This document shows, one piece after another, positions 3,736 through 29,557 of a stretch of DNA of 64,000 nucleotides. The stretch's first letter is position 1. The number at the start of each line of letters is the position of its first letter. Under the pieces are notes generated by a model that was not told the origin of the DNA, searched no databases, and saw nothing but the letters and a program-made list of their open reading frames with translations. The stretch comes from Bacteroidia bacterium (GTDB taxonomy: Bacteria; Bacteroidota; Bacteroidia; UKL13-3): the NCBI GenBank assembly GCA_046296495.1, contig JBKBLB010000001.1, positions 69,740 to 133,739 of the forward strand. Direction: 5' to 3'. Both the position numbers and the translations under genes were made by a program.

Positions 3736-3765
3736 TGTTTTTAATTTTTGTTTATTGCAGCCCTC

Positions 3766-6297
3766 ATGAAAATTACCAATAATTTAATAAAGGCAGTTGC
3801 AATTATTATGTTTTTTTCGGCCTGCAATGTAAATAAAAAGCCTCAAAGCCAAAAAGTTCAAAATACGGTAAACCTTAATGAAATTGTGGTAGAAGCCAAA
3901 CAAAACAATGCGCCTTACCAACCTGCTTCAACACAAACAACCGATTTATTTCATACAAAACTTAATTTATCTTTTAATTGGAAAGAGCAACTTGTTTATG
4001 GCAAAGCCACCTTAACCATAAAACCATATATGTTTAAAAAACTTAATCAGGTTTTTTTTGATGCCAATACTTTCATCATTCACAGAGTTGGGTTAATATC
4101 CGGTAAAGACACCATAAACCTAAATTATAGCTACAATTCACCGGTTTTGCAAATTTTTTTCAACCAAACTTATACTGATAAAGATACTTTAAATATTTAC
4201 ATACATTATACGGCTCAGCCAGAAAAAATTGCCAATAAAGGTGGAAGAGCAATAAGCGACAGCAAAGGTTTATATTTTATTAATCATTTAGGTACTGACC
4301 AAAATAAACCCATGCAAATATGGACGCAGGGTGAAACACAATTTAACAGTGGTTGGTTTCCAACCATTGACAGGCCAAATGAAAAGCATACGCAAGAAAT
4401 AGCCATTACTGTTGAAGATAAATTTATAACCCTAAGCAATGGAGAACTAATATTTAGTAATTACAACAAAGACGGCACCCGCACCGATTACTGGAAACAA
4501 ACCAAACCACATGCACCTTACCTTACCATGATAGCAGTTGGCGAATTTGCTGTAATAAAAGATAAATGGCGTAATACCATGGAAGTAAATTATTATGTTG
4601 AACCGAAATATAAACCTTATGCAAAATTAATATTTGGCAATACCCCCGAAATGATTGAGTTTTTTAGTAATAGAACCGGAGTAGATTATCCTTGGGATAA
4701 ATACAGCCAGGTTGTAGTAAGAGATTTTGTTAGTGGTGCTATGGAAAATACAAGTGCGGTTGTACATTACGAAGGAGTTGCACATACCGATAGAGAACAT
4801 GAAGATTATGATTCGGATGATATTATAGCACATGAATTGTTTCATCATTGGTTTGGCGATTTGGTTACCTGCAAAAGTTGGAGTAACCTGCCTTTAAACG
4901 AAAGTTTTGCTACCTATGGCGAATATTTGTGGCACGAATACAAATACGGTAAAAACCATGCCGATTTTGAGTTTACCAATAATTTAGAAGCATACTTAAG
5001 AACAAAAAATAAATACAACGTTACTCCCATTAGGCACCATTACCACAACGAAGTTGAATTGTTTGATGTGGTAAGCTACCAAAAAGGCAGCCGGATTTTA
5101 CATTTGCTTAGAAACCAAATTGGCGATGATGCTTTTTTTAAAGGAATGCAAATTTACTTAACTAAAAATAAATTCGGCACTGCCGATATTCATCACTTGC
5201 GCCATGCTATGGAAGAAGCAAGCGGAACAGATTTGCTATTATTTTTTAATCAATGGTTTTTGCAGGTCGGCCACCCGGTTATTAATGTAAACTACACTTA
5301 TGCTAATAATAAATTGCAAATAATAGTTAAGCAAAAGCCAACTGATTCAATAGCAACACCATATCAAATAAAAACATTGGTTGAATATGGCTATAATAAA
5401 AATGATATCATACAAACAATTACAAAAGAAGTAAACCTTAAAAATTTCATTGATACATTTATTTTCGATATTCAACCCGACCCACTTTGGTTTGTTTTTG
5501 ATGCACAGGCCGTAATGCCTGCACAAATATTTGAAAATAAACCTGAAAATTTTTGGCTCAACCAACTAATTTATGCTACAAACCATGCAATTAAAAAACG
5601 AGTAAAAAAACAGTTTTTAAATTTTAAAGATTCATTAAATATTTCAAATGCCATTAATTATTGTCTTACTCATAACCAACATTACATAAACGAAATGGGT
5701 TATGAAATGCTTTTCCAACATCAAAACTTAATACCCATATTTTTAAATATCATCGAACAACATGCCATATCTCATAAAAAATCGAGTTGTAGGGCCTATG
5801 CATTAAATGCAATTGCTTATTTAAACGATATAAAGTTTAAAAATTTGTTTGAAAAATCAATTAATGATAAATCTTACAATGTTGTTTCTACGGCTCTTTT
5901 TAATTTACTAATGTTTGATACCATTGCAACATTAAATTATGCAATAACATTTGAAAATGATGAAAATGCTGCAATTAGTTTAACACTTGCTGAATTGTAC
6001 ACCGATTTAGCTGTTGAAAACAAAAACAGTTATTTTATAACAAATTTAGGAAAACATGGCTTGTACAGAAATATGTTTATAGATAAATACATAGGTTATT
6101 TGCTAACTCAAGATTTAAAGACCATTGAAACCGGTATTGATGCTTTATTAAATTACAAACAAACATGCAGCGATAAAAATATAAGTTTCTATGCCGATAA
6201 ATGGGCTAATAAGTTAAAACAGGGAATTGAAAAAGATTTAAAAGAAAACGACAGTATTTCAGAAAAACTTTTGCAGTTAATGAATAAGGCTGATTAG
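3766..6297 (+). CDS. M1 family aminopeptidase, lipoprotein, with C-terminal HEAT-like region
   Basis: GAMEN exopeptidase motif, HELFH-x18-E zinc motif and YQKG. ATG at 3766 gives a lipoprotein signal ending FSAC. Confidence 0.92.
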   Translation: MKITNNLIKAVAIIMFFSACNVNKKPQSQKVQNTVNLNEIVVEAKQNNAPYQPASTQTTDLFHTKLNLSFNWKEQLVYGKATLTIKPYMFKKLNQVFFDANTFIIHRVGLISGKDTINLNYSYNSPVLQIFFNQTYTDKDTLNIYIHYTAQPEKIANKGGRAISDSKGLYFINHLGTDQNKPMQIWTQGETQFNSGWFPTIDRPNEKHTQEIAITVEDKFITLSNGELIFSNYNKDGTRTDYWKQTKPHAPYLTMIAVGEFAVIKDKWRNTMEVNYYVEPKYKPYAKLIFGNTPEMIEFFSNRTGVDYPWDKYSQVVVRDFVSGAMENTSAVVHYEGVAHTDREHEDYDSDDIIAHELFHHWFGDLVTCKSWSNLPLNESFATYGEYLWHEYKYGKNHADFEFTNNLEAYLRTKNKYNVTPIRHHYHNEVELFDVVSYQKGSRILHLLRNQIGDDAFFKGMQIYLTKNKFGTADIHHLRHAMEEASGTDLLLFFNQWFLQVGHPVINVNYTYANNKLQIIVKQKPTDSIATPYQIKTLVEYGYNKNDIIQTITKEVNLKNFIDTFIFDIQPDPLWFVFDAQAVMPAQIFENKPENFWLNQLIYATNHAIKKRVKKQFLNFKDSLNISNAINYCLTHNQHYINEMGYEMLFQHQNLIPIFLNIIEQHAISHKKSSCRAYALNAIAYLNDIKFKNLFEKSINDKSYNVVSTALFNLLMFDTIATLNYAITFENDENAAISLTLAELYTDLAVENKNSYFITNLGKHGLYRNMFIDKYIGYLLTQDLKTIETGIDALLNYKQTCSDKNISFYADKWANKLKQGIEKDLKENDSISEKLLQLMNKAD

Positions 6298-6314
6298 ATC
6301 TTCCACTGTAAAAT

Positions 6315-6347
6315 AAAAAAACCGCCATACTAAGATGGCGGCCTTTT
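6315..6347. terminator. Bidirectional intrinsic terminator
   Basis: A-run, CCGCCAT-actaag-ATGGCGG stem and T-run between convergent genes. Confidence 0.75.
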
Positions 6348-6381
6348 ACAAACTATAAACTATGAGAAAACTACTTTTTAT

Positions 6382-6801
6382 TTATTGAACGCTAACTTGT
6401 TTTTTAGCCGGAGTTTCTTTTTGTTTTTTGTTAATGGTTAAATGTAAAACGCCATTATCGTATTTGGCTCCAATATTATCGGCATCGGCATTTTCGGGCA
6501 GTGTAAACGAATTTGAGAATGAACGTGAACTAAACTCTTTACGGGTATAATTTTTATTTTTTTCTTCGTTTTCTTTTTCGGTTTTTCCGCTAATAGTTAA
6601 AATCCCGTTTTCAACATGCACTTCAAAATTTTCTTTTTTTAATCCCGGAGCTGCAACTTCAATTTCGTAATTGTTTTCATTATCAATTACGTTAATGGCT
6701 GGCGACCAATTTTCATTCGAAAATTTTGTTGTGAACCAATCATCGCCAAAAAAATCACTAAGGTTAGGAAATGATGGAAATGTACGTTTAATGAGTGCCA
6801 T
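6382..6801 (-). CDS. Hsp20/alpha-crystallin small heat shock protein
   Basis: Motifs PAINV, APGLKKENF, FSRSFSNSFTLP-like and AKYDNGVLHL. Confidence 0.95.
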   Translation of the reverse strand: MALIKRTFPSFPNLSDFFGDDWFTTKFSNENWSPAINVIDNENNYEIEVAAPGLKKENFEVHVENGILTISGKTEKENEEKNKNYTRKEFSSRSFSNSFTLPENADADNIGAKYDNGVLHLTINKKQKETPAKKQVSVQ

Positions 6802-6840
6802 AAATTTTAGTATTTTGGGTTAAACATTAATTTTACGATG

Positions 6841-6848
6841 CAAAAATA
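6841..6848 (-). promoter_or_regulatory. Bacteroidota -7 promoter element for hsp20
   Basis: TATTTTTG on the minus strand matches TAnnTTTG, 40 bp upstream of the ATG. Confidence 0.5.
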
Positions 6849-7119
6849 TTGGCATAAATTTTAATAAAAATGATAAAAGTCAGTATTCAATATGATTGTT
6901 ATCAGTTTTTTGAGTATTGATTAACGGTTAGTTTTTTAAAAATTTAGTATGTGATATAAATTGTTTATATTAATTTTAACCTTTAATATCTAACTATAAA
7001 TTCATCACAAACTATTTATTATTGCCATTACCAATGATTTTAATTAAAAAATTATATAAATTTAATTTGCTATTTTGTTTTACATGTTTTATTTTCGATT
7101 TGTCTAAAATTTTAAAAAT

Positions 7120-7817
7120 ATGAAAAATTTAAGTAACACGCAGCAGCAACACGCAGCAGCAACACGCGCAAATTTTTAAAAACCATTTTTAGCATTTGGT
7201 TGCTAATTGCAGCCAATATTGCTTTTTCACAAGGAGATGGACCAAATATTCCAGGTGATCCAAATCGGCCGGAAGGATGTTATTATTTAGGAACGGAAGC
7301 AGGTAGAGCAGGTTATGTTGACAAATGTGTTGGTTGTACCCAAACCGAAATTATGCAACAAATGCAACCTCCAACTTTATGTGAAGATGTATTACAAGCA
7401 AAAAGTCAATATGGTTGTTGTCCGATTTGTTGGATTGTAATTGATCCGGTTAACTTTAAAATTATGATTAATTATTTAAGAGATTTATATTGGGGAAGAG
7501 GTTGGCAGCCAGCAGGAGACAATACCGGTTTAGCAATGCTTTTAGCCGCAGTAGATACCACTGAAGGTGCTGAACAATGGGGTATATATATTCCAAAAAC
7601 CAATCAATTTATAATTAGCAATACAGCACCTCAAAAAGTGCCAACATACGATACAGGAACTGGTATTTTTTCCGGTTATACTTTGTATTCAGATCCAAAT
7701 AGTCAAAGAGTTGATTTTAATGATTTGGAATTAACAAATTTGATTAGAAACTGGTTACAAATTCCAATTAATCCTTGTAGTTTGTTATATAACATACCAT
7801 ATATTGGTGGCAATTAA
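7120..7817 (+). CDS. Cys-rich secreted orphan protein, currently frameshifted by a 13-bp repeat in its signal peptide (candidate phase-variable gene)
   Basis: ATG at 7120 ends at TAA after 19 codons. The long ORF frame has a TAA at 7134 and no ATG before the signal-peptide core. Removing 2 repeat units or adding 1 fuses the two into MKNLSNT...RKFLKTIFSIWLLIAANIAFS-Q. Confidence 0.7.
7135..7167 (+). repeat. 13-bp tandem repeat (AACACGCAGCAGC) x2 plus partial AACACGC
   Basis: Exact copies at 7135-7147 and 7148-7160, partial copy at 7161-7167. Confidence 0.97.
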
Positions 7818-7832
7818 ATAAAGTTAAATTTT

Positions 7833-8783
7833 ATGAAGTTACTAACTTATAAAGCAGTTTTTATTATATTAATAATATTTAAAATAGGGTTGTTGCAAGC
7901 ACAACCATACTTTAGATTTAGTATGGATACATTAACTTACAAAGAAATTGATCCTAGCTTTGGCGTTTTTAAAGATGAATTTTGGAACACACAAACTGGC
8001 CAATCCAGAATGTTGCCATTGCCATTTACATTTAATTTTTTTGGAGTTAATTATACTTCTACCTGGATAAGTAAGGCCGGAGGAATTACATTCTTTCACC
8101 CACAAAGTTTTTTGGCAAATAGAATATATTTTTTTAATACCTATTACACCGAAAAAAGCAAAAAAGCGCCTTTTGTATCGAGCATAACTGTTAATACAAT
8201 TGCCAGTGGTGCCGATAGCATTTTTAAAATACAATACAAAAATGTTGGTTTTGAAAGAAGTAAAGACACCTCAGGTTATGCTAATTTTCAGTTGTGGTTA
8301 TACAAAAATAGCAATGTATTCGAAATTCATTTTGGTGATATAAAGGCAGACAGCACTGCTTGGTTAAATCCATATGGCGCTTATGTAGGCATAGGTAAAG
8401 ACGAGCAGAGTATATTGGTATTGTTGGGTGGGCCTTCGCAAAATCCAAAATGGATGTTGCACAGGGATACGATGCTGCTAAATATTCCAGCTCCAAATAC
8501 GATTTATCGTTTTACCCCAATTTCAACTTCAATTGAAGTGCAAAATAAGATAATGCCAAATATTATTATATATCCGAATCCTGCAATTAATGAGTTTTTA
8601 GTTCAAACAGATTTAAAGTTGAATTTATTAGAAATATATAATTTAAACGGACAGATGGTAAAAAAAATTAATGTATTGATAGATGATAACAAGTTTGATA
8701 TTTCAGAGCTTAAAAAAGGTATATATCTTATTAAAATTTATACAATAAATGGTAACTATTATAAGAAGCTGGTTGTTGACTAA
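7833..8783 (+). CDS. T9SS type A sorting domain protein with NIDO-like N-terminal domain
   Basis: Signal peptide ending AQ; LPFTFNFFG..Y..WIS..G and NFQLWLY..SNVFEIHFG; CTD IYPNPA...IYNLNGQ...GIYLIKI...KKLVVD. Confidence 0.8.
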   Translation: MKLLTYKAVFIILIIFKIGLLQAQPYFRFSMDTLTYKEIDPSFGVFKDEFWNTQTGQSRMLPLPFTFNFFGVNYTSTWISKAGGITFFHPQSFLANRIYFFNTYYTEKSKKAPFVSSITVNTIASGADSIFKIQYKNVGFERSKDTSGYANFQLWLYKNSNVFEIHFGDIKADSTAWLNPYGAYVGIGKDEQSILVLLGGPSQNPKWMLHRDTMLLNIPAPNTIYRFTPISTSIEVQNKIMPNIIIYPNPAINEFLVQTDLKLNLLEIYNLNGQMVKKINVLIDDNKFDISELKKGIYLIKIYTINGNYYKKLVVD

Positions 8784-9048
8784 ATATGTTAATATAGCGA
8801 ATTTTAAATAAAGAAACTCTAATGAAATCAATGGAGTTAGATGAAAATGTAAAATACTTTTTAAAATATCCCTAATAAATAAATTTGTATAAAAGTATCA
8901 ACGATGCTAGCATAAATTAATAAGTGCATGGATATTGTAATTTCATTTAAATGCCTAACAAACCAACAGGTAAAAACTTTTAAATAAATGTGAATTAGTT
9001 GAAAACATTGATTTGAAATTTTGTGATTGATTATTACTTTCGCAAACC

Positions 9049-9561
9049 ATGAATTTAAAAACTACAACAATTTTTGCATTAATATTAGCAGGAGCATTAT
9101 TAAGACTTATTCCTCATGCGCCTAATTTTTCTCCTATTGCTGCCATTGCATTATTTGGTGGGGCTTATATTTCAAATAAATGGCTTAAAATGGTTTTGCC
9201 TGTTGCAGCACTTTTAATAAGCGATTTATTTTTAGGTTTCTATGGTTGGGGAATGATTAGTGTTTATGGAAGTTTTATGTTAATCATTGCATTGGGTTCA
9301 ACCATGAGCAATAAAGTAACTCCTGTAAAAGTTGGCTTAAATTCAATTGCAGGAAGTGTAATTTTTTATTTAATTACAAATTTTGCCTTTTTGTACCCTG
9401 CTACTTTGTATCCTCATAACTTTACGGGTATTATGCAGTCTTATACTGCTGCATGGCCGTTTTTTCAAAATGCTTTGTTTGGAGATTTGTTTTACAATAC
9501 CGTTTTGTTTGGTGGTTTTTACATTTTAACATCAAACGTTAAAGTTTTACAGAAAGCTTAA
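9049..9561 (+). CDS. DUF6580 family membrane protein (putative ECF S-component-like transporter)
   Basis: RLIPHAPNFSPIAAIALFGGA, FYLITNF and Y..A.PFFQN.L.GDL.Y motifs; several TM helices. Confidence 0.8.
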   Translation: MNLKTTTIFALILAGALLRLIPHAPNFSPIAAIALFGGAYISNKWLKMVLPVAALLISDLFLGFYGWGMISVYGSFMLIIALGSTMSNKVTPVKVGLNSIAGSVIFYLITNFAFLYPATLYPHNFTGIMQSYTAAWPFFQNALFGDLFYNTVLFGGFYILTSNVKVLQKA

Positions 9562-9584
9562 TTCCTGCACACTAAAATTTAAAA

Positions 9585-9893
9585 CTAGTTTTCAAATCTC
9601 TCTTTTCTTAGTACTTCAACGGTGCTTACAAAAGCAACAATGCTGTATTTTTCAAAATACTTTTCGGCAAGTGTTTCCATAATTTTCTCGGCAACTTCAT
9701 TTTTTACAAGCGTGTCAATTCTAATATTTCGCCCTTCCCAATCAGTAAAATGTTTTCCGTTTAGTCCTTCGCCTTCTACTTCTGTTATGGTATAGCCTTT
9801 ACTTCCACAAGCTTTAATATCTTTAATAATTTTTTGCTCCAGTGCATCAAGGGCAATGATGGTTACAAGTTTTACAGGTACTAATTTTATCAT
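9585..9893 (-). CDS. sbtB: SbtB-like P-II family regulator
   Basis: KLVTII, GYTITEVEGEG, NIRIDTLV and VEVLR.ERF; lies directly downstream of sbtA. Confidence 0.8.
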   Translation of the reverse strand: MIKLVPVKLVTIIALDALEQKIIKDIKACGSKGYTITEVEGEGLNGKHFTDWEGRNIRIDTLVKNEVAEKIMETLAEKYFEKYSIVAFVSTVEVLRKERFEN

Positions 9894-9904
9894 TTTTTAA
9901 AATA

Positions 9905-10870
9905 TTATAAAGAATAAATCCAGTGAGCCATATTTAAGTAAAGCGGAATGCCAATAGTAACATTAAACGGAAATACAACGGCAAGTGCAGATGTTAGGTA
10001 ATAACTTGGGTTTGCTTCGGGCAAAGCTATTCTTACAGCTGCAGGTGCTGCAATATAACTTGCACTGGCACACAATACTGCAAAAATGGCACTGCCACCA
10101 ATACTCAACCCCGCCCATTTAGCTAGCCAAAGCCCAATAAAAGCATTTAAAATTGGTAAAGCCAAACTTACCAAAATAAGTTGCATGCCAACTTTCTTTA
10201 AATCGAAGAGTCTTCGGCCTGTAACCAATCCAACTTCAAGTAAAAACAAACATAAAATGCCTTTAAATGGAGCTTCAAATAGCGGAGAAACTTGTTCAAA
10301 ACCTTTTTTGCCGGTTAGCATACCAACAAGTAGCCCTCCAATTAAAAGCACTATACCTTTACCGGTTAGCAGTTCGTGCAATACCTCACTATTGTCGCTT
10401 TGTTTTTGTTGGCTACCTTTTTTAGCAATAAACAAAGCAATTAATACTGCCGGAACTTCCATTATTGCTAAAAGTGCAGGCATAAAACCTTCGTAAGTTG
10501 TTTGGTGTGTATCCATGTAAACCATACTTTGGCTAAATGTAACAGCACTTACACTGCCAAAATGTGCTGCTAAAGCGGCTGCGTTTATCGTATCAAAACG
10601 GGCAATTTTTTTAAAAGCATAGTAAGCCCAAAATGGTATGGCACAACTCATTATTATACCGCTTAAACCTGCTTTATAAAAATCGGCAAGTGATGTTTGG
10701 CTTAGTTTTACACCACCTTTTAAGCCAATGGCAAAAAGTAAATAAATGGTAAGGCCCTGGTACATGCCTTCCGGAAATTTTAAATCACTTTTTATTATTG
10801 TGGCCAAAATGCCTGTAACAAAGGCAAGTACCATTGGCGATGTAAGGCTTTCAAGCAAAGTTTCAGTCAT
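9905..10870 (-). CDS. sbtA: Sodium-dependent bicarbonate transporter family permease (SbtA-like)
   Basis: KSDL.FP, YLLFAIGLKGG, AAHFGSVSAVTF, MEVPA, ASASYIAAPAA and FPFNV.IGIPLY. Confidence 0.92.
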   Translation of the reverse strand: MTETLLESLTSPMVLAFVTGILATIIKSDLKFPEGMYQGLTIYLLFAIGLKGGVKLSQTSLADFYKAGLSGIIMSCAIPFWAYYAFKKIARFDTINAAALAAHFGSVSAVTFSQSMVYMDTHQTTYEGFMPALLAIMEVPAVLIALFIAKKGSQQKQSDNSEVLHELLTGKGIVLLIGGLLVGMLTGKKGFEQVSPLFEAPFKGILCLFLLEVGLVTGRRLFDLKKVGMQLILVSLALPILNAFIGLWLAKWAGLSIGGSAIFAVLCASASYIAAPAAVRIALPEANPSYYLTSALAVVFPFNVTIGIPLYLNMAHWIYSL

Positions 10871-10934
10871 TTTACAATTGCTTAATATCGAACTATATTT
10901 TTTTATCTATGTTCGAATAATTTTTGGCAATGTA

Positions 10935-11312
10935 ATGGCTCAAAATCTTAAAAACAACAAAGAAAAAGGAAACCTTGGAGAAGATATTGCAACAAAATAC
11001 CTGCAAGACAAAGGCTATCTTATACTTGAACGCAATTTTACTTCAGGAAAAGCCGAAATTGATATAATAGCACAACACCAAAACGATATTGTTTTTGTTG
11101 AAGTAAAAACTCGTTTTAATGCCTTACTCGAACCTGAAAAAGCTGTTACAAAAGCCAAACAAAAACACCTTGCATTTGCTGCAACTGCATTCATTGAAGA
11201 TAAGCAACCCGGCAAACAGGCAAGGTTCGATATTATAAGCATCAATTTCATTAACAATAAGCCCCAAATTGAGCATTTTGAAGATGCATTTTATCCTTAC
11301 ATTGCTTTATAA
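10935..11312 (+). CDS. YraN family PD-(D/E)XK nuclease-like protein
   Basis: GEDIA..YL..KGY.IL.RN, EIDII, FVEVKTR and RFDII. ATG at 10935 is preferred because the track start at 10746 overlaps sbtA. Confidence 0.92.
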   Translation: MAQNLKNNKEKGNLGEDIATKYLQDKGYLILERNFTSGKAEIDIIAQHQNDIVFVEVKTRFNALLEPEKAVTKAKQKHLAFAATAFIEDKQPGKQARFDIISINFINNKPQIEHFEDAFYPYIAL

Positions 11313-11326
11313 TTCATTATCATAAT

Positions 11327-12307
11327 ATGAAAAAGTTATCACTTACTTTATTAATTTTACTCATCGTAAATCCACTACTTTTTAGTTGGGGGTTTTACGG
11401 ACATAGAATTATAAACCGTATGGCTGTATTTGCCTTACCACCCGAAATGTTTGGCTTTTATAAGTTTCACATAGATTACCTTACCGAACATGCCGTTGAC
11501 CCTGATAAACGCAGATACAGTGATAAAGAAGAAGCACCAAGACATTACATAGATTTAGATCATTTTGAGAAAGCCATACCAATAGATACCATGCCCTTTG
11601 ATTTTGAAGATGCACAAAAAAAGTTTACCCTCGATACTTTGTTAGCTTATGGTATTGTACCCTGGCATATTGTAAAGGTTTACAACCAGCTTAAATATGC
11701 TTTTAAAGAAAAAAATTCACAACGTATTTTAAAACTCAGTGCAGATATTGGACATTACATTGCCGATGCGCATGTGCCTTTACATACTTCCGAAAACTAT
11801 AATGGCCAGCTAACAAACCAGCATGGCATACATGGTTTTTTAGAAAGCCGTTTGGTTGAATTATTTGCTAAAGACTATGACTTTTTTGTAGGTAAAGCCA
11901 ATTATGTAAACAATATGCAGGCATTTGGCTGGAAAGCAGTTGAAGGCAGTTTTGCCGCATTAGACTCGGTTTTTTTGTTTGAACGCAAAGCAGCAGAATC
12001 AATACCGGAAAGAGAACGTTTCAGCTACGAGCAAAAAGGCCAAAATCAGATAAAAGTATATAGTGTAAAGTATGCAAATGCATATCATAATATGCTAAAC
12101 GGAATGGTAGAAAGGCGAATGCAAGCTGCCATACTTGCAGTTGCATGTATTTGGTACAGTGCCTGGGTTGATGCAGGGCAGCCAAATCTTAACGATTTAC
12201 TTGACAAAAAACCGGAAAAAGCGCCAAAACAAAAAGAGCTTGAAGAAATGATAGGGCTTGAAACCAAAGAAATTGAAAATTTAAAAATGATTGGCAGGCA
12301 GGAATAA
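11327..12307 (+). CDS. S1/P1 nuclease / zinc-dependent phospholipase C family, secreted
   Basis: Signal peptide followed by WGFYGH, RHYIDLD, GHYIADAHVPLHT and HGFLES. Confidence 0.88.
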   Translation: MKKLSLTLLILLIVNPLLFSWGFYGHRIINRMAVFALPPEMFGFYKFHIDYLTEHAVDPDKRRYSDKEEAPRHYIDLDHFEKAIPIDTMPFDFEDAQKKFTLDTLLAYGIVPWHIVKVYNQLKYAFKEKNSQRILKLSADIGHYIADAHVPLHTSENYNGQLTNQHGIHGFLESRLVELFAKDYDFFVGKANYVNNMQAFGWKAVEGSFAALDSVFLFERKAAESIPERERFSYEQKGQNQIKVYSVKYANAYHNMLNGMVERRMQAAILAVACIWYSAWVDAGQPNLNDLLDKKPEKAPKQKELEEMIGLETKEIENLKMIGRQE

Positions 12308-12480
12308 TAAGCTCATTACAGCTTTAAAAAAGTAATTAATTGTTAATAACTTTTGTTTGAACCAATAAACCTGCCATATATTTTTGTTGCATATATAAAG
12401 TTTAGTGCAGTTTTTGGTATTTAATAAATCAAAACTACATTCGCTGATAATTGCATTAAAACTTAAACAAAAAAGCATAC

Positions 12481-13605
12481 ATGAAATTTATAATAAACAG
12501 CAGCGTATTGTTAAAGCACCTCAGTTATGTTGATGGTGTTGTGGTATCAAAACCTATCATACCAATACTTAATAACTTTTTGTTTGATGTAAAAGATGGT
12601 AATCTTACTATTTCATCAACCGATTTGGAAACAACCATGACAACTTCCATTAAAGTTGATGCCCAAGAGGATATTAATATTGCCATTCCAAGTAAAAACA
12701 CCATAGAATTATTACGTAAATTACCCGATCAACCTCTTGCATTTTCAATAAACCCCGAAAAAGGTTCGGTAGAAATAAAATACGAATCAGGAAAATTTAA
12801 AACCTCTGCCATAAGTGGAGAAGAGTTTCCCAAAACTCCAGAAGTTGAAGGTTCATCATCGTTTACCATTCCTGCCAAAATATTGCAAAAAGCTATCTCA
12901 AAAACAGTTTTTGCAACCAGTAACGATGAGTTAAGACTTAATTTAACCGGTGTTTATGTTCAATTATTTAACGACAGTATTACTTTAGTTGCTACTGATG
13001 CAAACCGATTGGTTCGTTTTAAGCGAAGTGATGTAAAACCGGGAATTGAGGAATCATTTATTTTGCCAAAAAAAGCATTAAACCTTTTAAAATCTACATT
13101 ACCTGCCGATGATACCCCCGTAAAAGTTCAATACAACAGGCAGAATGCTTTTTTTACATTTGGCGATATAAGTTTGATTTGCCGTTTAATTGATGAAAAA
13201 TATCCTGATTACAATGCGGTAATACCCAACGATAATCCCAATAAACTTACAGTTGATAAAAACGAGTTTAGCATGGCTGTTCAGCGTGTTGCAATTACCA
13301 GCAACCGCAGCACCTATCAAATTAGGGTAAAAATAGCAGGCAGTGAACTTACCGTTAGTGCTGAAGACATAGATTACGAAAACGAAGCAATAGAAAAATT
13401 GCAATGTGAGTTTGAAGGAGAAGACATGGAAATTGGTTTCAACAGTAAATATTTATTGGAATTACTTAATAATGTTGATAGTGATAAAGTGCGAATAGAA
13501 ATGAGTTTGCCAAGCCGAGCAGTAGTAATTTTACCAACAACACCAATTGAAAACGAAGATATTCTGATGTTGGTAATGCCTATGATGGTAAGCAGCAGTT
13601 ATTAA
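12481..13605 (+). CDS. dnaN: DNA polymerase III beta clamp
   Basis: PILNNFLF, STDLE, VATD, RLIDEKYPDY, IGFNSKYL and LVMPM. Confidence 0.97.
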   Translation: MKFIINSSVLLKHLSYVDGVVVSKPIIPILNNFLFDVKDGNLTISSTDLETTMTTSIKVDAQEDINIAIPSKNTIELLRKLPDQPLAFSINPEKGSVEIKYESGKFKTSAISGEEFPKTPEVEGSSSFTIPAKILQKAISKTVFATSNDELRLNLTGVYVQLFNDSITLVATDANRLVRFKRSDVKPGIEESFILPKKALNLLKSTLPADDTPVKVQYNRQNAFFTFGDISLICRLIDEKYPDYNAVIPNDNPNKLTVDKNEFSMAVQRVAITSNRSTYQIRVKIAGSELTVSAEDIDYENEAIEKLQCEFEGEDMEIGFNSKYLLELLNNVDSDKVRIEMSLPSRAVVILPTTPIENEDILMLVMPMMVSSSY

Positions 13606-13650
13606 TAATTAACATTTATCTTACATTCATTTACTTATTTTGCGCCCCAA

Positions 13651-14391
13651 ATGCGCATCCTTTTTTTTGTTATAACGCTTAACTTTTTTTCAGCAGGAGT
13701 TTTTGCCGTAAGGCCTTTTATTACTGATGATGCACGGGTTGTTGGCTATCGCCTTGCACAGTATGAAGGATGGACACGATTTGACAGATTTGGCGGAGAA
13801 TTTTGGAGTATGGTTGCTTATGGCCCAAATCGTTTTTTAGAACTTAGTTTGGGTGGTGTAACAGGTTATGAGTTACATCAAAACAAAAGACCTGATTTTA
13901 CAGCAGCCGCACCTTTGGTTCAAGCAAAATTTTTATTTAATGAATACAGTGATGGAAAACCTCCGGGTTTTGGCCTTGTGGCAGGTACATTTTTACCTTA
14001 CGGATTTGGTGAACTTAGGCCTTCAGGTTATGGTTCGTTTGCTTTTGCTACCATTTCGCAGTGTATTGGCAAAAACGAAAATGTATTAATTCACGCAAAT
14101 GTGGGAGCAAATTTTGTTGACTTTAAAGACAATAATTCGTTGGTATATACATGGGGTTATGGCACACAAATTAAAGCTTATAAAGGTTTTCATTTAGTAG
14201 CTGAACACTTTAGCGGAGATCCTTATGTGCCGGGTACCGGCATGGCTATTCAGGTTGGTTTCAGGCATTTTTTTAGTGATAATTTTCAAATTGACGGAAC
14301 TTATGGAAAAGGTATTTCGGGAGAATTTGTATTACCTCATTGGTTTAGTTTTGGTGTAAGAATTGTTACAGAAAAATTTTATAAAAAATAG
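13651..14391 (+). CDS. Hypothetical secreted protein, probable outer-membrane beta-barrel
   Basis: Signal peptide, RPFITDDARVV N-terminus, alternating aromatic beta-strands and terminal WFSFGVRI. Confidence 0.6.
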   Translation: MRILFFVITLNFFSAGVFAVRPFITDDARVVGYRLAQYEGWTRFDRFGGEFWSMVAYGPNRFLELSLGGVTGYELHQNKRPDFTAAAPLVQAKFLFNEYSDGKPPGFGLVAGTFLPYGFGELRPSGYGSFAFATISQCIGKNENVLIHANVGANFVDFKDNNSLVYTWGYGTQIKAYKGFHLVAEHFSGDPYVPGTGMAIQVGFRHFFSDNFQIDGTYGKGISGEFVLPHWFSFGVRIVTEKFYKK

Positions 14392-14394
14392 AAA

Positions 14395-14973
14395 TTATTC
14401 TTCCCATTTTATACTTGCAATTATTTGTAAAACATCTTGCTTTAAAAATTCAACCACAGGTGCAATACTATCAGCTTCGGTTCTTACATTAAAGTACAAT
14501 GAGCCTCGCAAAAAGTGCCTTACGCTGTCAGTAATGTAAAACTGGTTATGTGTAGCTGTTGAACCATCCAACTCATAATAAATTCCGTACTTTCCGGGCA
14601 GTTTTATATAGTTTTCTCTAATTTCGTCTGCTTTCATTACATGTTTAAAAACCATGGTATTGGCATCATCAAGCATTTTAAACAAATCATTTCTATTTTT
14701 TAAAGGCTTATAGCTTAAATGTAATGTAGCTTTAAAAGGTAAAAAGTTTACATTATACCAACATTCATCCGGGTTTGGATAGGGGTCGGGTTTTAGATTG
14801 GCGTAAACAGGAAGGTTTAAGCCGTAATGACATTCTTTTACAACCGTGTAATTGCTTTTGCGTTCAGGAAAAACCAAACGGGGGTAAGCTTTAGGCTTTG
14901 GTGTTTGTTGTTTGTTTGAACACGAAATTGTTATTGATATAAAAATTAATATAAAACTTCTTAAACTAATCAT
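14395..14973 (-). CDS. gldD: Gliding motility lipoprotein GldD
   Basis: Lipobox ISC, PKPKAYPR and QFYITDS..HFLRGSLYF; follows gldE. Confidence 0.92.
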   Translation of the reverse strand: MISLRSFILIFISITISCSNKQQTPKPKAYPRLVFPERKSNYTVVKECHYGLNLPVYANLKPDPYPNPDECWYNVNFLPFKATLHLSYKPLKNRNDLFKMLDDANTMVFKHVMKADEIRENYIKLPGKYGIYYELDGSTATHNQFYITDSVRHFLRGSLYFNVRTEADSIAPVVEFLKQDVLQIIASIKWEE

Positions 14974-16307
14974 TATTTCAGAATGCTGACTTTTACACGC
15001 TTTATCTTTCTTTTATCAACCGATTCTATTTTAAACTCAAATTGTTTGAAATTTAGTATTTTTCCTTCTTCGGGTAAATCGCCATTTAGTTCAAGTAACA
15101 TACCTCCAAGTGTATCAGCATCGTTTCGTATATTGTCAAAAATATTTGGTTCAAGCTCCATATATCTACATACATCATTTATGGGTAATTTGGCTTCAAA
15201 CACATAAGTATAATCATTTATTTTAGAATAAATGTTTTCGTCTTCATCAAATTCATCATTTATTTCTCCGAATATTTCTTCTAAAATATCTTCCATTGTT
15301 ACTAGGCCGCTTGTGCCTCCAAACTCATCAACTACAATGGCAAGGTGAATGCGGTTAGTTTGAAAATCTCTAAGCAAATCATCAATCTTTTTGCTTTCGG
15401 GAACAAAATATGGTTTGCGAATAAGTTCTAACCAGTTAAAGGTTTCATCATTATTTATATGCGGTAAAATATCTTTTGTAAATAAAATTCCGGTAATATT
15501 ATCAAGGTGTTCGTTATAAACAGGCAAACGAGAGTACCCTGATTCGTTAATAATTCCGAGCAGTTGTTTAAAATTTATGGTAGAATCAATGGCAACAATA
15601 TCCGGACGTTGACGCATTATTTGGTTTACGGTAATATTACCAAAATTTACTATACTTTTAAGCAGCGATTTTTCTTGTTTTGGCGCATCTTTTTCGCTTG
15701 TAATTTCTATGGCATGTGTAAGTTCATCAACAGTAAGTATATGTCCCTTGCTGGTAATTCTCTTATCAATTACCGATGTAGTATTTTCGAGCAACCATAC
15801 AAAAGGCTGTAAAATTTTATATATGCTGAACATGGGTATGGCTACATATTTAACCACACGCATATTGTTTTGAACCGAATATATTTTTGGAATAACCTCG
15901 CCAAACAAAACTATAACAAATGTAACAATTATGACTTCGAGTATAAAACCTAAAACAGGGTTTTGCTGAAAATTGAAAATGATAGAAAAAACCAAGGTGG
16001 TAACCATTACAATAGCTACATTTACAAGAGTATTTGCTATAAGAATGGTAGCAAGCAGTTTTTTGGGATTACGCAAAAGGTAATTAATGGCAAAACTCTT
16101 GTTTGGGTTTTGCTCCAATAGCTCTTCAAGTTGGCTGCGGTTTAACGAAAAAAAAGCGTTTTCGCTACCCGACATAATTGCAGATAATACAATCAATACA
16201 AAAACAGCTAACAATCCGGCAACAATGGTTGAAATATCTCCCGAATGTAAATTGGAGTTAAAAATACCTGCTATCTGTAAAAATACATGAGGGGGTTGGT
16301 CGTCCAT
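14973..16307 (-). CDS. gldE: Gliding motility-associated protein GldE (CNNM/CBS/CorC domains)
   Basis: SGSENAFFSL, FGEVIPK, YSRLPV and VVDEFGGTSGLVTMEDILEEI.GEI.DEFD; synteny with ssb and gldD. Confidence 0.92.
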   Translation of the reverse strand: MDDQPPHVFLQIAGIFNSNLHSGDISTIVAGLLAVFVLIVLSAIMSGSENAFFSLNRSQLEELLEQNPNKSFAINYLLRNPKKLLATILIANTLVNVAIVMVTTLVFSIIFNFQQNPVLGFILEVIIVTFVIVLFGEVIPKIYSVQNNMRVVKYVAIPMFSIYKILQPFVWLLENTTSVIDKRITSKGHILTVDELTHAIEITSEKDAPKQEKSLLKSIVNFGNITVNQIMRQRPDIVAIDSTINFKQLLGIINESGYSRLPVYNEHLDNITGILFTKDILPHINNDETFNWLELIRKPYFVPESKKIDDLLRDFQTNRIHLAIVVDEFGGTSGLVTMEDILEEIFGEINDEFDEDENIYSKINDYTYVFEAKLPINDVCRYMELEPNIFDNIRNDADTLGGMLLELNGDLPEEGKILNFKQFEFKIESVDKRKIKRVKVSILK

Positions 16308-16316
16308 GAAAAAAAA

Positions 16317-16775
16317 TTAAAATGGCAAATCATCTTCCTGCGCAGGCATAGAAGATGTATAATTTTCTGCATAGTTAACCGTATTGCTTTCGGCAATAGG
16401 TTGGTTTGTTGGTTTGCCTGTATTTGTGCTTTCTATACTATCGGCTTGTCTTGATCCTAGCAATGTCATGTTTGTAACACGTATTCTTTTATCACTTCTT
16501 TCTATACCTTCTTTATCTTTCCAATTTTCGGTTTTTATTTTTCCTTCAACAAAAACCTGATTGCCTTTTTTAAGATATTTTTCAGCAATTTTAGCCAAGT
16601 TATCCCACATTTCAACTCGGTGCCATTCGGTTTCGGTACGTTTTTCTCCGTTTTTATCGGTATATGTTTCGTTGGTAGCTATGGTAAAAGATGCAACTAC
16701 TTTATTATTATCCAAATATCTAACTTCAGGGTCTCGGCCTAAGTTTCCTATAAGCATTACTTTATTTAACGACAT
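16317..16775 (-). CDS. ssb: Single-stranded DNA-binding protein
   Basis: NKVMLIGNLGRDPE, TEWHRV and acidic C-terminus DDLPF. Confidence 0.97.
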   Translation of the reverse strand: MSLNKVMLIGNLGRDPEVRYLDNNKVVASFTIATNETYTDKNGEKRTETEWHRVEMWDNLAKIAEKYLKKGNQVFVEGKIKTENWKDKEGIERSDKRIRVTNMTLLGSRQADSIESTNTGKPTNQPIAESNTVNYAENYTSSMPAQEDDLPF

Positions 16776-16787
16776 ATATTTTAAAAT

Positions 16788-17840
16788 TTAAAACGGCAAA
16801 TTAACATTTTGCAAGTACTTTTCAAAAAGTCTGTGGGTGGGATATTTTTCAACATCTTTAATGTAAACACATGTTAAATTATCTTCAATTTTCAATTTAC
16901 TTTTAACAGCCAACGTAACAAATTGAGCATGTATGGTTTGGTGTGTAAGTTGGTGTTTGTATTGATGCGAATTTAAAACCATAAGTTTTTCAGGTTTTAT
17001 ATTAAACTTTTTGCAAAAGGCTTCTGTTATATTTGGTAATTCGGTAAAGTTATCGGTTTCAATCAATATCGGTTCAAACAAGCCCTGCCAAATATCTTTT
17101 AAAGTTCTTTGTTTAAGGTAAGTTTTATTGTTTTGAACCAAAACCAAATAATTAAAATATCGGTTAATGGGTTTTTTTTTGGTAAGTTTTAAAGGTAAAG
17201 TTGATTGTATTTTTTTTGTATTTGCCAAACAACCATTTTGAATAGGACATTCGGTGCATTTAGGGTTTGCAGGTGTACAAACTATTGCTCCTAACTCCAT
17301 TATTGCCTGATTGTGTATAGCAGGTTCTTTTTTATTTAAAAACTCATTTGCCAACTGTGTAAATATTTTTTTTCCAATGGTTGAGTTTATAGGTTTGTCT
17401 ATACAAAAATACCTTGCAAGCACCCTAAAAACGTTTCCATCTAAAACTGCGTAAGGCTGGTTATAAGCAAAACTTGCAATGGCTGCTGCAGTATATGGCC
17501 CAATACCTTTTAATTTTATTAGTTTTTCATATTTATCAGGAAAAACACCTCCAAATTGCTCAACAATATTTTTAGCCGTTTTATGCATATTTCGGGCACG
17601 GCTGTAGTAACCCAATCCCTGCCAAAGTTTTAAAACGGTTTCACTAGGTGCTTCGGCAAGTGTAAAAATTGTTTTAAATGTGTTGGTAAAGTTAAGGTAG
17701 TAGGGCAAACCTTGCTCAACGCGGGTTTGTTGCAAAATAATTTCGCTAAGCCAAATATAATAGGGGTTTTGTGTATTTCGCCAGGGTAGTTGCCGTTTGT
17801 TTTTTTTGTACCAAATCAGCAGTTTTTCGTTGTCGTTCAT
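16788..17840 (-). CDS. mutY: A/G-specific adenine glycosylase
   Basis: WLSEIILQQTRV, GLGYYSRARN, HhH motif LKGIGPYTA, DGNVFRV and 4Fe-4S motif C-x6-C-x2-C-x5-C. Confidence 0.97.
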   Translation of the reverse strand: MNDNEKLLIWYKKNKRQLPWRNTQNPYYIWLSEIILQQTRVEQGLPYYLNFTNTFKTIFTLAEAPSETVLKLWQGLGYYSRARNMHKTAKNIVEQFGGVFPDKYEKLIKLKGIGPYTAAAIASFAYNQPYAVLDGNVFRVLARYFCIDKPINSTIGKKIFTQLANEFLNKKEPAIHNQAIMELGAIVCTPANPKCTECPIQNGCLANTKKIQSTLPLKLTKKKPINRYFNYLVLVQNNKTYLKQRTLKDIWQGLFEPILIETDNFTELPNITEAFCKKFNIKPEKLMVLNSHQYKHQLTHQTIHAQFVTLAVKSKLKIEDNLTCVYIKDVEKYPTHRLFEKYLQNVNLPF

Positions 17841-17903
17841 TAGGTGTTGACAATAAAATGAAATAAAAATTCAAAAAAATCAACATTTTATTCAGTTAAT
17901 TTA

Positions 17904-17911
17904 TACATTTG
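17904..17911 (+). promoter_or_regulatory. -7 promoter element for the HU operon
   Basis: TACATTTG matches TAnnTTTG. Confidence 0.6.
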
Positions 17912-17966
17912 CAACCCCTTACATAAAAAATACATTTCATAACAAACAGTTAATAAGTTAAATAAG

Positions 17967-18308
17967 ATGACAAAAGCAGAAATTATCACAGAAATCTCTT
18001 TAAAAACCGGTATCGAAAAAAATCAGGTTCAAGAGGTTGTAGAATCATTTTTTAAAGTTGTGCGCAACAACATGACAGACGGAAGAAACATTTATTTCCG
18101 TGGTTTTGGCAGTTTTATAATTAAAAAACGTGCTAAAAAAATTGCTCGAAACATTTCAAAAAATACGGCAATGGTTATTGATGAACACTACATTCCATCT
18201 TTTAAACCTGCTAAAACATTTGTTGATAAAGTTAAGAAAAGCGATGCTGTGAAAGCTAATGCTGCAAAGCGTGAGGCAGAAGCTAAACAAGCCCTTAAAG
18301 ACGCTTAA
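17967..18308 (+). CDS. HU/IHF family DNA-binding protein
   Basis: MTKAEII, FRGFGSF, ARNISKN and PSFKP. Confidence 0.93.
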   Translation: MTKAEIITEISLKTGIEKNQVQEVVESFFKVVRNNMTDGRNIYFRGFGSFIIKKRAKKIARNISKNTAMVIDEHYIPSFKPAKTFVDKVKKSDAVKANAAKREAEAKQALKDA

Positions 18309-19153
18309 TGCAGCTAAATAAGGTTCAAATAATAGTAATTTCGATTTTGGTAGTATTGGTTGGTATTTTGGTATATGCCAATTTAAAAACCCCACAGTAC
18401 AAACCTGAACAATTGAGTGATGTCGGAAAAGAAAAAGCTCAGGTAAAGGATTTTGATTTACAGTTGTATCTTATATCGTTGCATGATTCCGTTAATACCG
18501 AAACATCAAACGAATTGAGAAACCTTACAAATATTGTAGAAACTGATACAACTAAATTATATCCAAAATTAAAACTTGCTATGATGTACGATTCGTTGGG
18601 CTATTCGCTTGCCTCTGGTTATTACTACAGCCTTGCCGCAAGAATTTTAAACGATGAAACATCTTGGTACAAAGCCGGTTTCAGGTTTTACGAATGTGCC
18701 GCTACTACCATTGATACACCCATGCAATATTTTGCTACAAATAAAGCTATTGAAGCTTTTGAAAAAGTAGTAGCGATTAATTCAAACAATATTGAAGCTA
18801 AAAACGCACTTGCTATTTGTTATATTAAAAACGATCTTGATATAATGAAGGGCGTTCAACTTTTAAAAGATGTTTTAAGAATAGACAGCACCAATATTGA
18901 TGCAAATTACACACTCGGTATTTTAAGCATGAGAAGCGGCCAAATGGATAAAGCAGCACAAAGGTTCAAAACACTTACAGCCATTCAACCGTTTAATCCT
19001 GAATTTTACTATTATTTAGGCGAATGTTATGTTGAATTAAACAACAAAACAGAAGCCATAAAAGCATTTGAAACATTTAGGCAACTTGTTCCTGATGAAG
19101 GTACAAAACAAGCCATTCAATCTACCATTAATAACCTAAAAAACAATAATTAA
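18308..19153 (+). CDS. Tetratricopeptide repeat protein with N-terminal membrane anchor
   Basis: C-terminal TPR-like helices; TAATG stop-start overlap with the HU gene. Confidence 0.8.
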   Translation: MQLNKVQIIVISILVVLVGILVYANLKTPQYKPEQLSDVGKEKAQVKDFDLQLYLISLHDSVNTETSNELRNLTNIVETDTTKLYPKLKLAMMYDSLGYSLASGYYYSLAARILNDETSWYKAGFRFYECAATTIDTPMQYFATNKAIEAFEKVVAINSNNIEAKNALAICYIKNDLDIMKGVQLLKDVLRIDSTNIDANYTLGILSMRSGQMDKAAQRFKTLTAIQPFNPEFYYYLGECYVELNNKTEAIKAFETFRQLVPDEGTKQAIQSTINNLKNNN

Positions 19154-29474: not shown

Positions 29475-29480
29475 TTGTTA

Positions 29481-29557
29481 GTTCGATGTATTTTGTTTGA
29501 GGTTCGAAGTAATTGGTTCGAAGTTCGAAGTATTTAGTTTGAAGTTCGAAGTTAGAA
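29481..29557. repeat. Degenerate heptamer array (GTTCGAA consensus) with 21-bp higher-order period
   Basis: gttcgat gtatttt gtttgag / gttcgaa gtaattg gttcgaa / gttcgaa gtattta gtttgaa / gttcgaa gttagaa. Confidence 0.85.

Follow-up and report, generated by a model that had tools for sequence, protein, structure and literature searches.

Repeat-driven phase variation is textbook material for pathogens adapted to a host, among them Neisseria, Haemophilus, Campylobacter and Helicobacter, and the heptanucleotide repeat of neuO in Escherichia coli K1 lies in or near the 5′ end of the coding region. In the opa genes of Neisseria, as described in PMC3745409, a (CTCTT)n tract within the codons of the leader peptide restores or disrupts the reading frame at a rate of ~1e-3 per cell per generation. 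Judged by mechanism, Neisseria opa is the closest analogue of the locus described here, in which a short tandem repeat lies behind a start codon in the window (the whole 64,000-nt stretch of DNA that was analysed, from a Bacteroidia bacterium; assembly GCA_046296495.1, contig JBKBLB010000001.1). As in the published description of opa, the repeat unit has a length that is not divisible by three and falls in signal-peptide codons, the number of units would decide the frame, several such genes occur in one genome, and the products are predicted to be exported or to reach the surface (PMC3745409). In contrast, the two systems have no sequence relationship, and the tract in the window consists of 2.5 copies of 13 nt where the published opa tracts consist of many copies of 5 nt. 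The hosts differ as well, because the bacterium here is an uncultured, apparently free-living member of the Bacteroidia from a hot spring and not a host-restricted pathogen, and the gene in the window is paired with a gene for a cargo protein of the type IX secretion system (T9SS). Membership of the Opa outer-membrane family was considered and rejected: there is no Pfam or NCBIfam match, and the resemblance is mechanistic only.

Units of 7 nt that turn genes ON and OFF through the reading frame are described for neuO of E. coli K1 and for the SSR loci of Haemophilus influenzae (PMC13001214, PMC2651432). The same unit length, as given in those sources, recurs at sister loci elsewhere in the genome that holds the window (G000; unit ACAGCAC) and at orthologs of the window gene in genus g4 (units of AAAACAC type), whereas the proteins and phyla are different and the window's own unit is 13 nt long. 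The earlier note on this DNA had stated that switch units are usually 1-8 bp, which agrees with the range of 1 to 9 nt covered by the PhasomeIt survey; that survey applies a cut-off of three copies to units of 6-9 nt, and according to it, high mutation rates are reached with fewer repeats when the units are longer (PMC5953494). Because the 2.5 copies in the window lie below this cut-off, the slippage rate of the tract may be low, and the tract is at the weak end.

Within the same phylum, phase variation in Bacteroides is described as inversion of DNA by recombinases, with invertible promoters (PMC11868660, a 2025 review). The locus in the window would share with the systems in that review the stochastic ON/OFF control of surface structures and the presence of many loci per genome (PMC11868660). 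It differs in having no inverted repeats or recombinase; what changes is how long a coding repeat is. A literature search whose scope left subscription journals and supplements outside found no report of repeat-driven switching in Bacteroidota or in connection with T9SS. The mechanism proposed here is of a known kind; it is new in its organism, in the lengths of its units and in the pairing with T9SS.

The 13-nt tract and the start codon at 7120

The tandem repeat occupies positions 7135..7167 on the forward strand and consists of two full copies of the 13-nt unit AACACGCAGCAGC followed by a further 7 nt. Read from 7120, the order of letters is ATG AAA AAT TTA AGT, then AACACGCAGCAGC twice, then AACACGC, which places the beginning of the tract 15 nt past the ATG, within the 5′ coding region, with a unit length that is not divisible by three. 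Tandem Repeats Finder (TRF) reports the interval 7135-7167 with period 13, 2.5 copies, 100% matches and a score of 66. The unit is G+C-rich (8 of 13 bases) in very A+T-rich surroundings, as the earlier note had pointed out, with 33.7% G+C in the genome and 17-25% in 200-nt windows just upstream. In the genome as a whole (2.7 Mb in 55 contigs, 99.7% complete), exact matches to AACACGCAGCAGC are confined to these two copies, and three one-mismatch matches occur as single copies elsewhere. The 13-nt tandem repeat exceeds chance, because the exact unit is unique to this site and only 15 TRF rows genome-wide lie above the thresholds applied (period of at least 4, at least 2.4 copies, at least 95% match and a score of at least 50). 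The tract has no potential to form a DNA hairpin (z +0.7), and a scan for sigma-70 promoters, a model that is unsuited to Bacteroidota, returned 8 sites against 13.3 in shuffles.

From the ATG at 7120..7122 (forward strand, followed by AAA) the frame runs through 19 codons to the TAA at 7177..7179, so that TRF and translation together reproduce the early stop that had been read for the two-unit allele. The long open frame differs from that of the ATG; it runs without interruption from 7137 up to its stop codon at 7815-7817 (226 codons), and the body of the gene accounts for 215 codons of open sequence outside the ATG 7120 frame. Whole units were cut from or put into the window sequence by script, and the resulting sequences were translated. 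In silico, 0, 3 and 6 full copies bring the ATG into frame with the body, with products of 223, 236 and 249 aa, whereas 1, 2, 4 and 5 copies give ATG products of 19 or 32 aa. This slicing of units gave the outcome that the earlier note had predicted for 0 and 3 copies on the one hand and 1 and 2 copies on the other, and the description given there proved correct in all checkable details.

Downstream of the tract, the body frame at 7167..7229 (forward strand) encodes what appears to be the rest of a signal peptide, with the residues RKFLK, a hydrophobic core TIFSIWLLIAANIAF and a serine before a glutamine, giving a predicted cleavage site at AFS↓Q. Translated, this interval can be aligned to the signal peptides of the homologous proteins. 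Five homologous loci are in frame (L007, L008, L009, L013 and L017), all five begin with ATG-AAA at the position equivalent to 7120, and each encodes 11-16 polar residues with 1-4 Lys or Arg, followed by a hydrophobic core, a small-x-small site and then Gln. A full signal peptide is therefore present in the in-frame homologs at the place where the zero-copy allele had been read as a Sec signal peptide joined to the open reading frame ending at 7817, which supports that reading.

We consider it probable, on the strength of these features and of the comparisons below, that the 13-nt tract serves as a slippage-driven on/off switch of a secreted-protein gene and that the switch is currently OFF. 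In this mechanism, the tract would be a hotspot of slipped-strand mutation situated where a Sec signal peptide has its polar N-terminal segment, and the reading frame would depend on how many 13-nt units are present. With two full units, a ribosome that begins at ATG 7120 would end after 19 codons, and the ~200-aa Cys-rich secreted protein would not be made (OFF). If one unit were gained or two were lost, the ATG would be joined to the body and a normal signal peptide would return (ON). Slippage during replication, for which 20 nt of misaligned pairing are available, would change the number of 13-mers at a useful rate, and the switching would be selected for. ON cells would export the protein by way of Sec, with cleavage at the predicted site, and in OFF cells the early termination may lower expression of the T9SS neighbour.

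A different account of the same sequence is that protein is made now from TTG 7200, or from an in-frame ATT (7185 or 7194), and that the ATG with its repeat is a short upstream open reading frame or a relic. Initiation at the TTG would account for the purifying selection on the body described below, and it is the start given in public annotation, where the window protein (P0007, 205 aa) begins at TTG 7200 and P0002 (204 aa), which is 90% identical to it and encoded on an NCBI contig of 887 nt, begins at the equivalent Leu codon. The annotated start of P0002 could mean that the OFF state is old and shared, or that the TTG is truly used as a start. These annotations are not independent evidence, because gene callers take the first permitted start past a stop. 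The TTG product would carry 10 residues and no Lys or Arg ahead of the predicted cleavage site, which upholds the earlier description of a truncated signal peptide and stands against the longer, charged polar segments of the in-frame homologs. Between the tract and the TTG, moreover, the body frame has kept the codons for RKFLK and for the initial half of the hydrophobic core, and the TTG itself lies within the stem of an 8-bp hairpin (7196..7216, forward strand), in a segment (7177-7270) with a fold z-score of -2.1. Taken together, the ATG-AAA starts of the in-frame homologs, the RKFLK and core codons upstream of the TTG, and the lack of Lys or Arg in the TTG product argue that ATG 7120 is the ancestral start, and we give little credence to present-day synthesis from the TTG or ATT codons. 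The earlier note had held that homologs starting at the 7200 position would count against the switch; on this point the evidence divides, with the five in-frame loci speaking for the ATG and the annotation of P0002 from its TTG equivalent speaking against it. Annotation pipelines place the start of such genes at a TTG further downstream and so drop the signal peptide, as in P0007, and OFF alleles are then recorded as intact cytoplasmic proteins.

Programmed -1 ribosomal frameshifting at A_AAT_TTT (7170-7176), just ahead of the TAA, would allow the two-copy allele to be expressed without any change in the tract. This heptamer has the X_XXY_YYZ form, a -1 slip on it would lead into the body frame, and the hairpin lies downstream. 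The usual spacing between a frameshift heptamer and its stimulatory structure is 5-9 nt; the hairpin, however, begins 19 nt past the heptamer, and its fold z-score is only modest. The combination of heptamer, structure 5-9 nt downstream and conservation that marks a programmed -1 site was not found here. The heptamer can be read simply as the ancestral K-F-L codons in an A/T-rich gene, and the OFF allele of the orthologous locus L015 would need a +1 shift, leaving no recoding signal common to the two. We regard frameshifting as extremely improbable.

The number of copies in the assembly could itself be mistaken, the true tract having three (or zero) full copies that were collapsed or expanded. 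De Bruijn assemblers can collapse tandem repeats, and by our reasoning a 46-nt tract would become a 13-node loop at k=31. Among public runs, X1 alone, a metagenome from a hot spring and probably the source sample, contained the stretch; runs X2 and X3 yielded no contigs across it. The Logan contig of X1 is 32.5 kb long with a mean word depth of 119, shows 0 differences over 6800-7600 and is unbroken at the tract; it carries the two-copy allele with no variants, in a type of contig from which minority variants are dropped. As the GenBank record and this contig are identical over that interval, two assemblies, probably of the same reads, agree on two full copies. This agreement argues against an artefact, as do the length of the tract, which at either 33 or 46 nt is shorter than ordinary reads, and the existence of similar out-of-frame alleles in independent records (L015 and L016). 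An error of assembly or sequencing is thus, in our view, very improbable.

Orthologous tracts and the protein family

The mature part of the protein, together with the stop codon, spans 7230..7817 on the forward strand and was characterized by homolog alignment and by selection. It is a Cys-rich, putatively secreted protein of ~195 aa from an orphan family, with conserved Cys residues and the motif YGCCP[IV]CW; the alignment of homologs has 44 invariant columns, six of which are Cys. Searches of Pfam and NCBIfam gave no family match for the protein at E <= 0.01, and it has neither a Por_Secre_tail nor a TIGR04183 domain, so it is not itself T9SS cargo. The gene occurs in 6 of the 119 genomes of the same taxonomic family and is absent from all 24 sampled genomes of other families of the class. 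Its sporadic presence within the family indicates a gene that is lost often. A profile search against 1.84 billion cluster representatives gave three matches, all within the family, and a word-based search of 5.8 billion proteins matched five clusters. Two relatives were among the 74 pattern matches of a metagenome scan, and a contig scan of genomes returned five relatives, which are the same five genomes found in the family survey. The AlphaFold2 model, built from 7 sequences, is poor (mean pLDDT 51), and Foldseek found no match in the PDB at E <= 0.001 (best E 0.29). A lectin- or CdtA-like identity suggested by names in the ESM Atlas was rejected, with scores of at most 0.83, a level that is common for shuffled proteins.

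Comparison with close relatives bears on whether the body is still maintained. The window protein and P0002 differ at 19 of 204 columns; four distant homologs leave 64 columns invariant, and a single one of the 19 differences (R>K) lies in these (p 0.006, one-sided Fisher test). Against P0003, a close relative encoded on a 4.8-kb Logan contig, 2 of 38 differences lie within 47 such invariant columns (p 1.5e-5). The distribution of these substitutions shows purifying selection acting on the gene body. The gene has been maintained in working form in the lineage, from which it follows that the frameshift is recent, or reversible, or bypassed.

DNA copies of eight loci could be compared: the window, L007, L008, L009, L013, L015, L016 and L017. 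A tandem repeat is present in all eight, beginning 3-15 nt past the ATG, right after ATG-AAA, and the units are specific to lineages, with lengths of 5/15, 7, 7 and 13 nt. In the window the 13-mer (2.5 copies) leaves the gene out of frame. L007 carries 3.7 copies of AAACTTC and is in frame; among 5 genomes searched, this 7-mer was found at its own locus only. Orthologs from genus g4 carry a 7-mer of AAAACAC/AAAATAC type, with five units in L009 and in L017, both in frame, three units in L015 and six units in L016, both out of frame. In genus g2, a 15-nt block made of ACACA is present twice in L008 and once, as three ACACA units, in L013; both loci are in frame, and they differ by this one 15-nt block. 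Two-copy AAAACAC also gave three matches in G024, G019 and G121, which lie inside unrelated open reading frames or in intergenic DNA, look like chance, and were set aside.

The changes between close relatives come in whole units. L009, L016 and L017 are ~98% identical across 3.2-4.6 kb, and L009 and L015 are 91% identical. In pairwise alignments of L009, L015, L016 and L017, the indels longer than 1 nt are of 7 nt and 14 nt only, and both lie inside the tract. Three of the eight loci are out of frame (the window, L015 and L016), and in each the number of units is the cause. An invariant copy number across strains had been named in the earlier note as an observation that would speak against a switch; the orthologous tracts instead vary by whole units at 91-98% identity, these differences being seen in other genera while the window's own 13-mer is known from one run (X1). 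The pattern across the eight loci is, by comparison of sequences, the signature of a slippage hotspot. Together with eight more tracts elsewhere in G000, the presence of repeats in all eight orthologs and their unit-wise changes support the view of the locus as a candidate contingency locus.

Two of these orthologs carry further changes. In L016 (2001-2663), from a lake metagenome and a relative of L009, a stop codon takes the place of the conserved Trp in the CPICW motif, in addition to the 6-unit OFF tract. L017 (1998-2663), likewise a lake-metagenome relative of L009, is in frame and has G>R and C>Y substitutions at otherwise invariant positions. Such lesions are signs of decay in some populations.

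The main rival to a switch is an ordinary knockout, in which one 26-nt or two 13-nt tandem duplications produced a young pseudogene, or a gene locked off with no useful reversion. A tract of no more than 2.5 copies with a unit that is unique in the genome would fit such an event, as would the single allele in the sole assembly data (X1), the sporadic occurrence of the gene in the family, the extra lesions in L016 and L017, and the fact that seven of the nine repeat loci in G000 are out of frame. That same proportion of OFF loci also fits slow decay of the whole class of genes. A knockout does not lead one to expect a body that is intact across 215 codons in a genome of low G+C and that bears the mark of purifying selection against two close relatives, nor a repeat at the same place in eight of eight loci with unit-wise changes at 98% identity, nor the retention by G000 of up to 13 copies at the same position in other genes. 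On this balance we judge a one-off knockout unlikely.

Other repeat-bearing starts and the T9SS neighbours

Reversible switching by slippage gains from the occurrence of comparable tracts in the same genome. The earlier note had suggested a search for other AACACGCAGCAGC arrays just downstream of start codons; none turned up in the genome, and arrays of other units do exist at such positions. Of the arrays in the 15 TRF rows of G000, nine have units shorter than 20 nt and not divisible by three, and seven of these are placed 8-33 nt past an ATGAAA start. Two weaker tracts raise the total to nine repeat-bearing starts, the window's included, the eight others having units of 7 or 10 nt; the window gene is thus one of at least nine in G000. 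Apart from the window locus (C1:76874; 13-mer, 2.5 copies, OFF), tracts of a 7-mer lie at C13:5054 (5.1 copies, OFF), C13:8350 (2.4 copies, ON), C13:11429 (4.1 copies, OFF), C13:14716-14808 (13.3 copies, OFF), C23:3915 (4.3 copies, OFF) and C23:2458 (4.6 copies, OFF), and tracts of a 10-mer at C9:81519 (7.9 copies, OFF) and C9:78634 (2.8 copies, ON). The sister heptamer loci carry ACAGCAC in 4 to 13 copies, and a tenth tract near C13:430 resembles a remnant.

In the long frame behind each of the nine tracts, residues rich in Lys and Arg are followed by a hydrophobic core and then by a lipobox (LNAC↓K) or an A-x-S↓Q site (AIS↓Q). Of the nine, seven are out of frame; the two that are in frame come near the one third expected for random phase. 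Because all units are C/A-rich and have no T on the coding strand, there is no stop in any frame of any tract. The nine loci belong to three unrelated gene families (the window gene, the C13/C23 lipoproteins and the C9 proline-rich proteins) and therefore count as three independent cases. The array (ACAGCAC)x3 occurs in 1 of the 119 family genomes, which is G000 itself; with the 13-mer confined to one site, this restricted distribution suggests that the repeat units are young. A multi-locus repeat system is established for G000 alone, the sole genome scanned by TRF.

The start at 7120 is embedded in a 21-nt motif made up of an A/T-rich leader and the start itself, AAATTTTAAAAATATGAAAAA (7107..7127, forward strand). 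The leader-start motif AAATTTTAAAAAYATGAAAAA, with Y at position 13, occurs seven times in G000, and six of the seven are at repeat-bearing starts, the window's among them; the seventh copy, at C20:19085, belongs to an ordinary signal-peptide gene. The motif may represent a common 5′ module, or merely a favoured context for initiation.

Directly downstream of the repeat-bearing gene, 15 nt past its stop codon, lies a gene for a 316-aa protein (7833..8783, forward strand) with a T9SS C-terminal sorting domain (Por_Secre_tail PF18962, E 4e-13; TIGR04183, 7e-14), and the two genes are probably on one transcript. A homolog of this neighbour is the next gene in all eight family loci, overlapping or within ~15 nt, the sorting domain having been scanned in the window copy only. 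Since the repeat-bearing gene is the first in a conserved two-gene unit, an OFF state may have a polar effect on the neighbour. At the repeat-bearing starts of G000, a Por_Secre_tail gene follows directly in six of nine cases, and no such domain was found downstream of C13:8350, C23:3915 and C23:2458. With 117 Por_Secre_tail matches in the genome, roughly one gene in twenty by our estimate, the T9SS adjacency in all three gene families is notable, not overwhelming.

If the switch is real, an uncultured bacterium from a hot spring controls its exported proteins through a stochastic switchboard of multiple loci, and the 10- and 13-nt units escape scoring by standard phasome tools, which cover 1-9 nt. 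We put forward more tentatively, as a possibility rather than a favoured conclusion, that a dedicated "repeat slot" is maintained in the polar N-terminus of signal peptides by the free-living Bacteroidia of this family, as a heritable switch for two-gene modules (a small lipoprotein or secreted protein, then a surface protein exported by T9SS), amounting in G000 to a phasome of the T9SS surface coat with at least nine loci, mostly off. Mutability itself would then be under selection, because the sequence of the repeat turns over (5/15, 7, 10 and 13 nt) while its position is conserved. With such a slot, contingency loci would occur not only in host-restricted pathogens but also in environmental Bacteroidota, and with units longer than the 1-9 nt that present detection tools cover; its likely purpose, which is speculation, would be escape from phages or grazers.

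Several features of the window and of the rest of the genome can be added. In the window, the locus has as neighbours an M1 aminopeptidase (3748-6297), an HSP20 small heat-shock protein (6382-6801, reverse strand) and a DUF6580 membrane protein (9049-9561); these are ordinary housekeeping genes, with no mobile element around the locus. Outside the window, on C13, the region 4500-18500 (L023, L047) holds a cassette of a repeat-bearing lipoprotein gene (~420 aa), a T9SS cargo gene (~500 aa) and a gene for a 147-aa HTH_3 protein. The cassette is present in at least three copies, and Por_Secre_tail matches at C13:20126 and C13:22058 suggest more. The region C9:75500-82000 (L025, L048) encodes two paralogous proline-rich secreted proteins of 212-214 aa, one ON and one OFF, in which the 10-nt repeat (7.9 and 2.8 copies) lies directly behind ATGAAAAA, and each of the two is upstream of a T9SS cargo gene of ~700 aa.

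Longer repeats also occur in the genome. At C14:27561-28439, a 151-nt unit is repeated 5.8 times (95% matches), with three short G+C-rich palindromes per unit; a CRISPR array was considered for this region and rejected, as there are no variable spacers. The window itself contains two further arrays whose units are divisible by three, one of a 78-nt unit in 1.9 copies at 59871-60018 (score 245) and one of a 21-nt unit in 3.5 copies at 29480-29552 (score 104).
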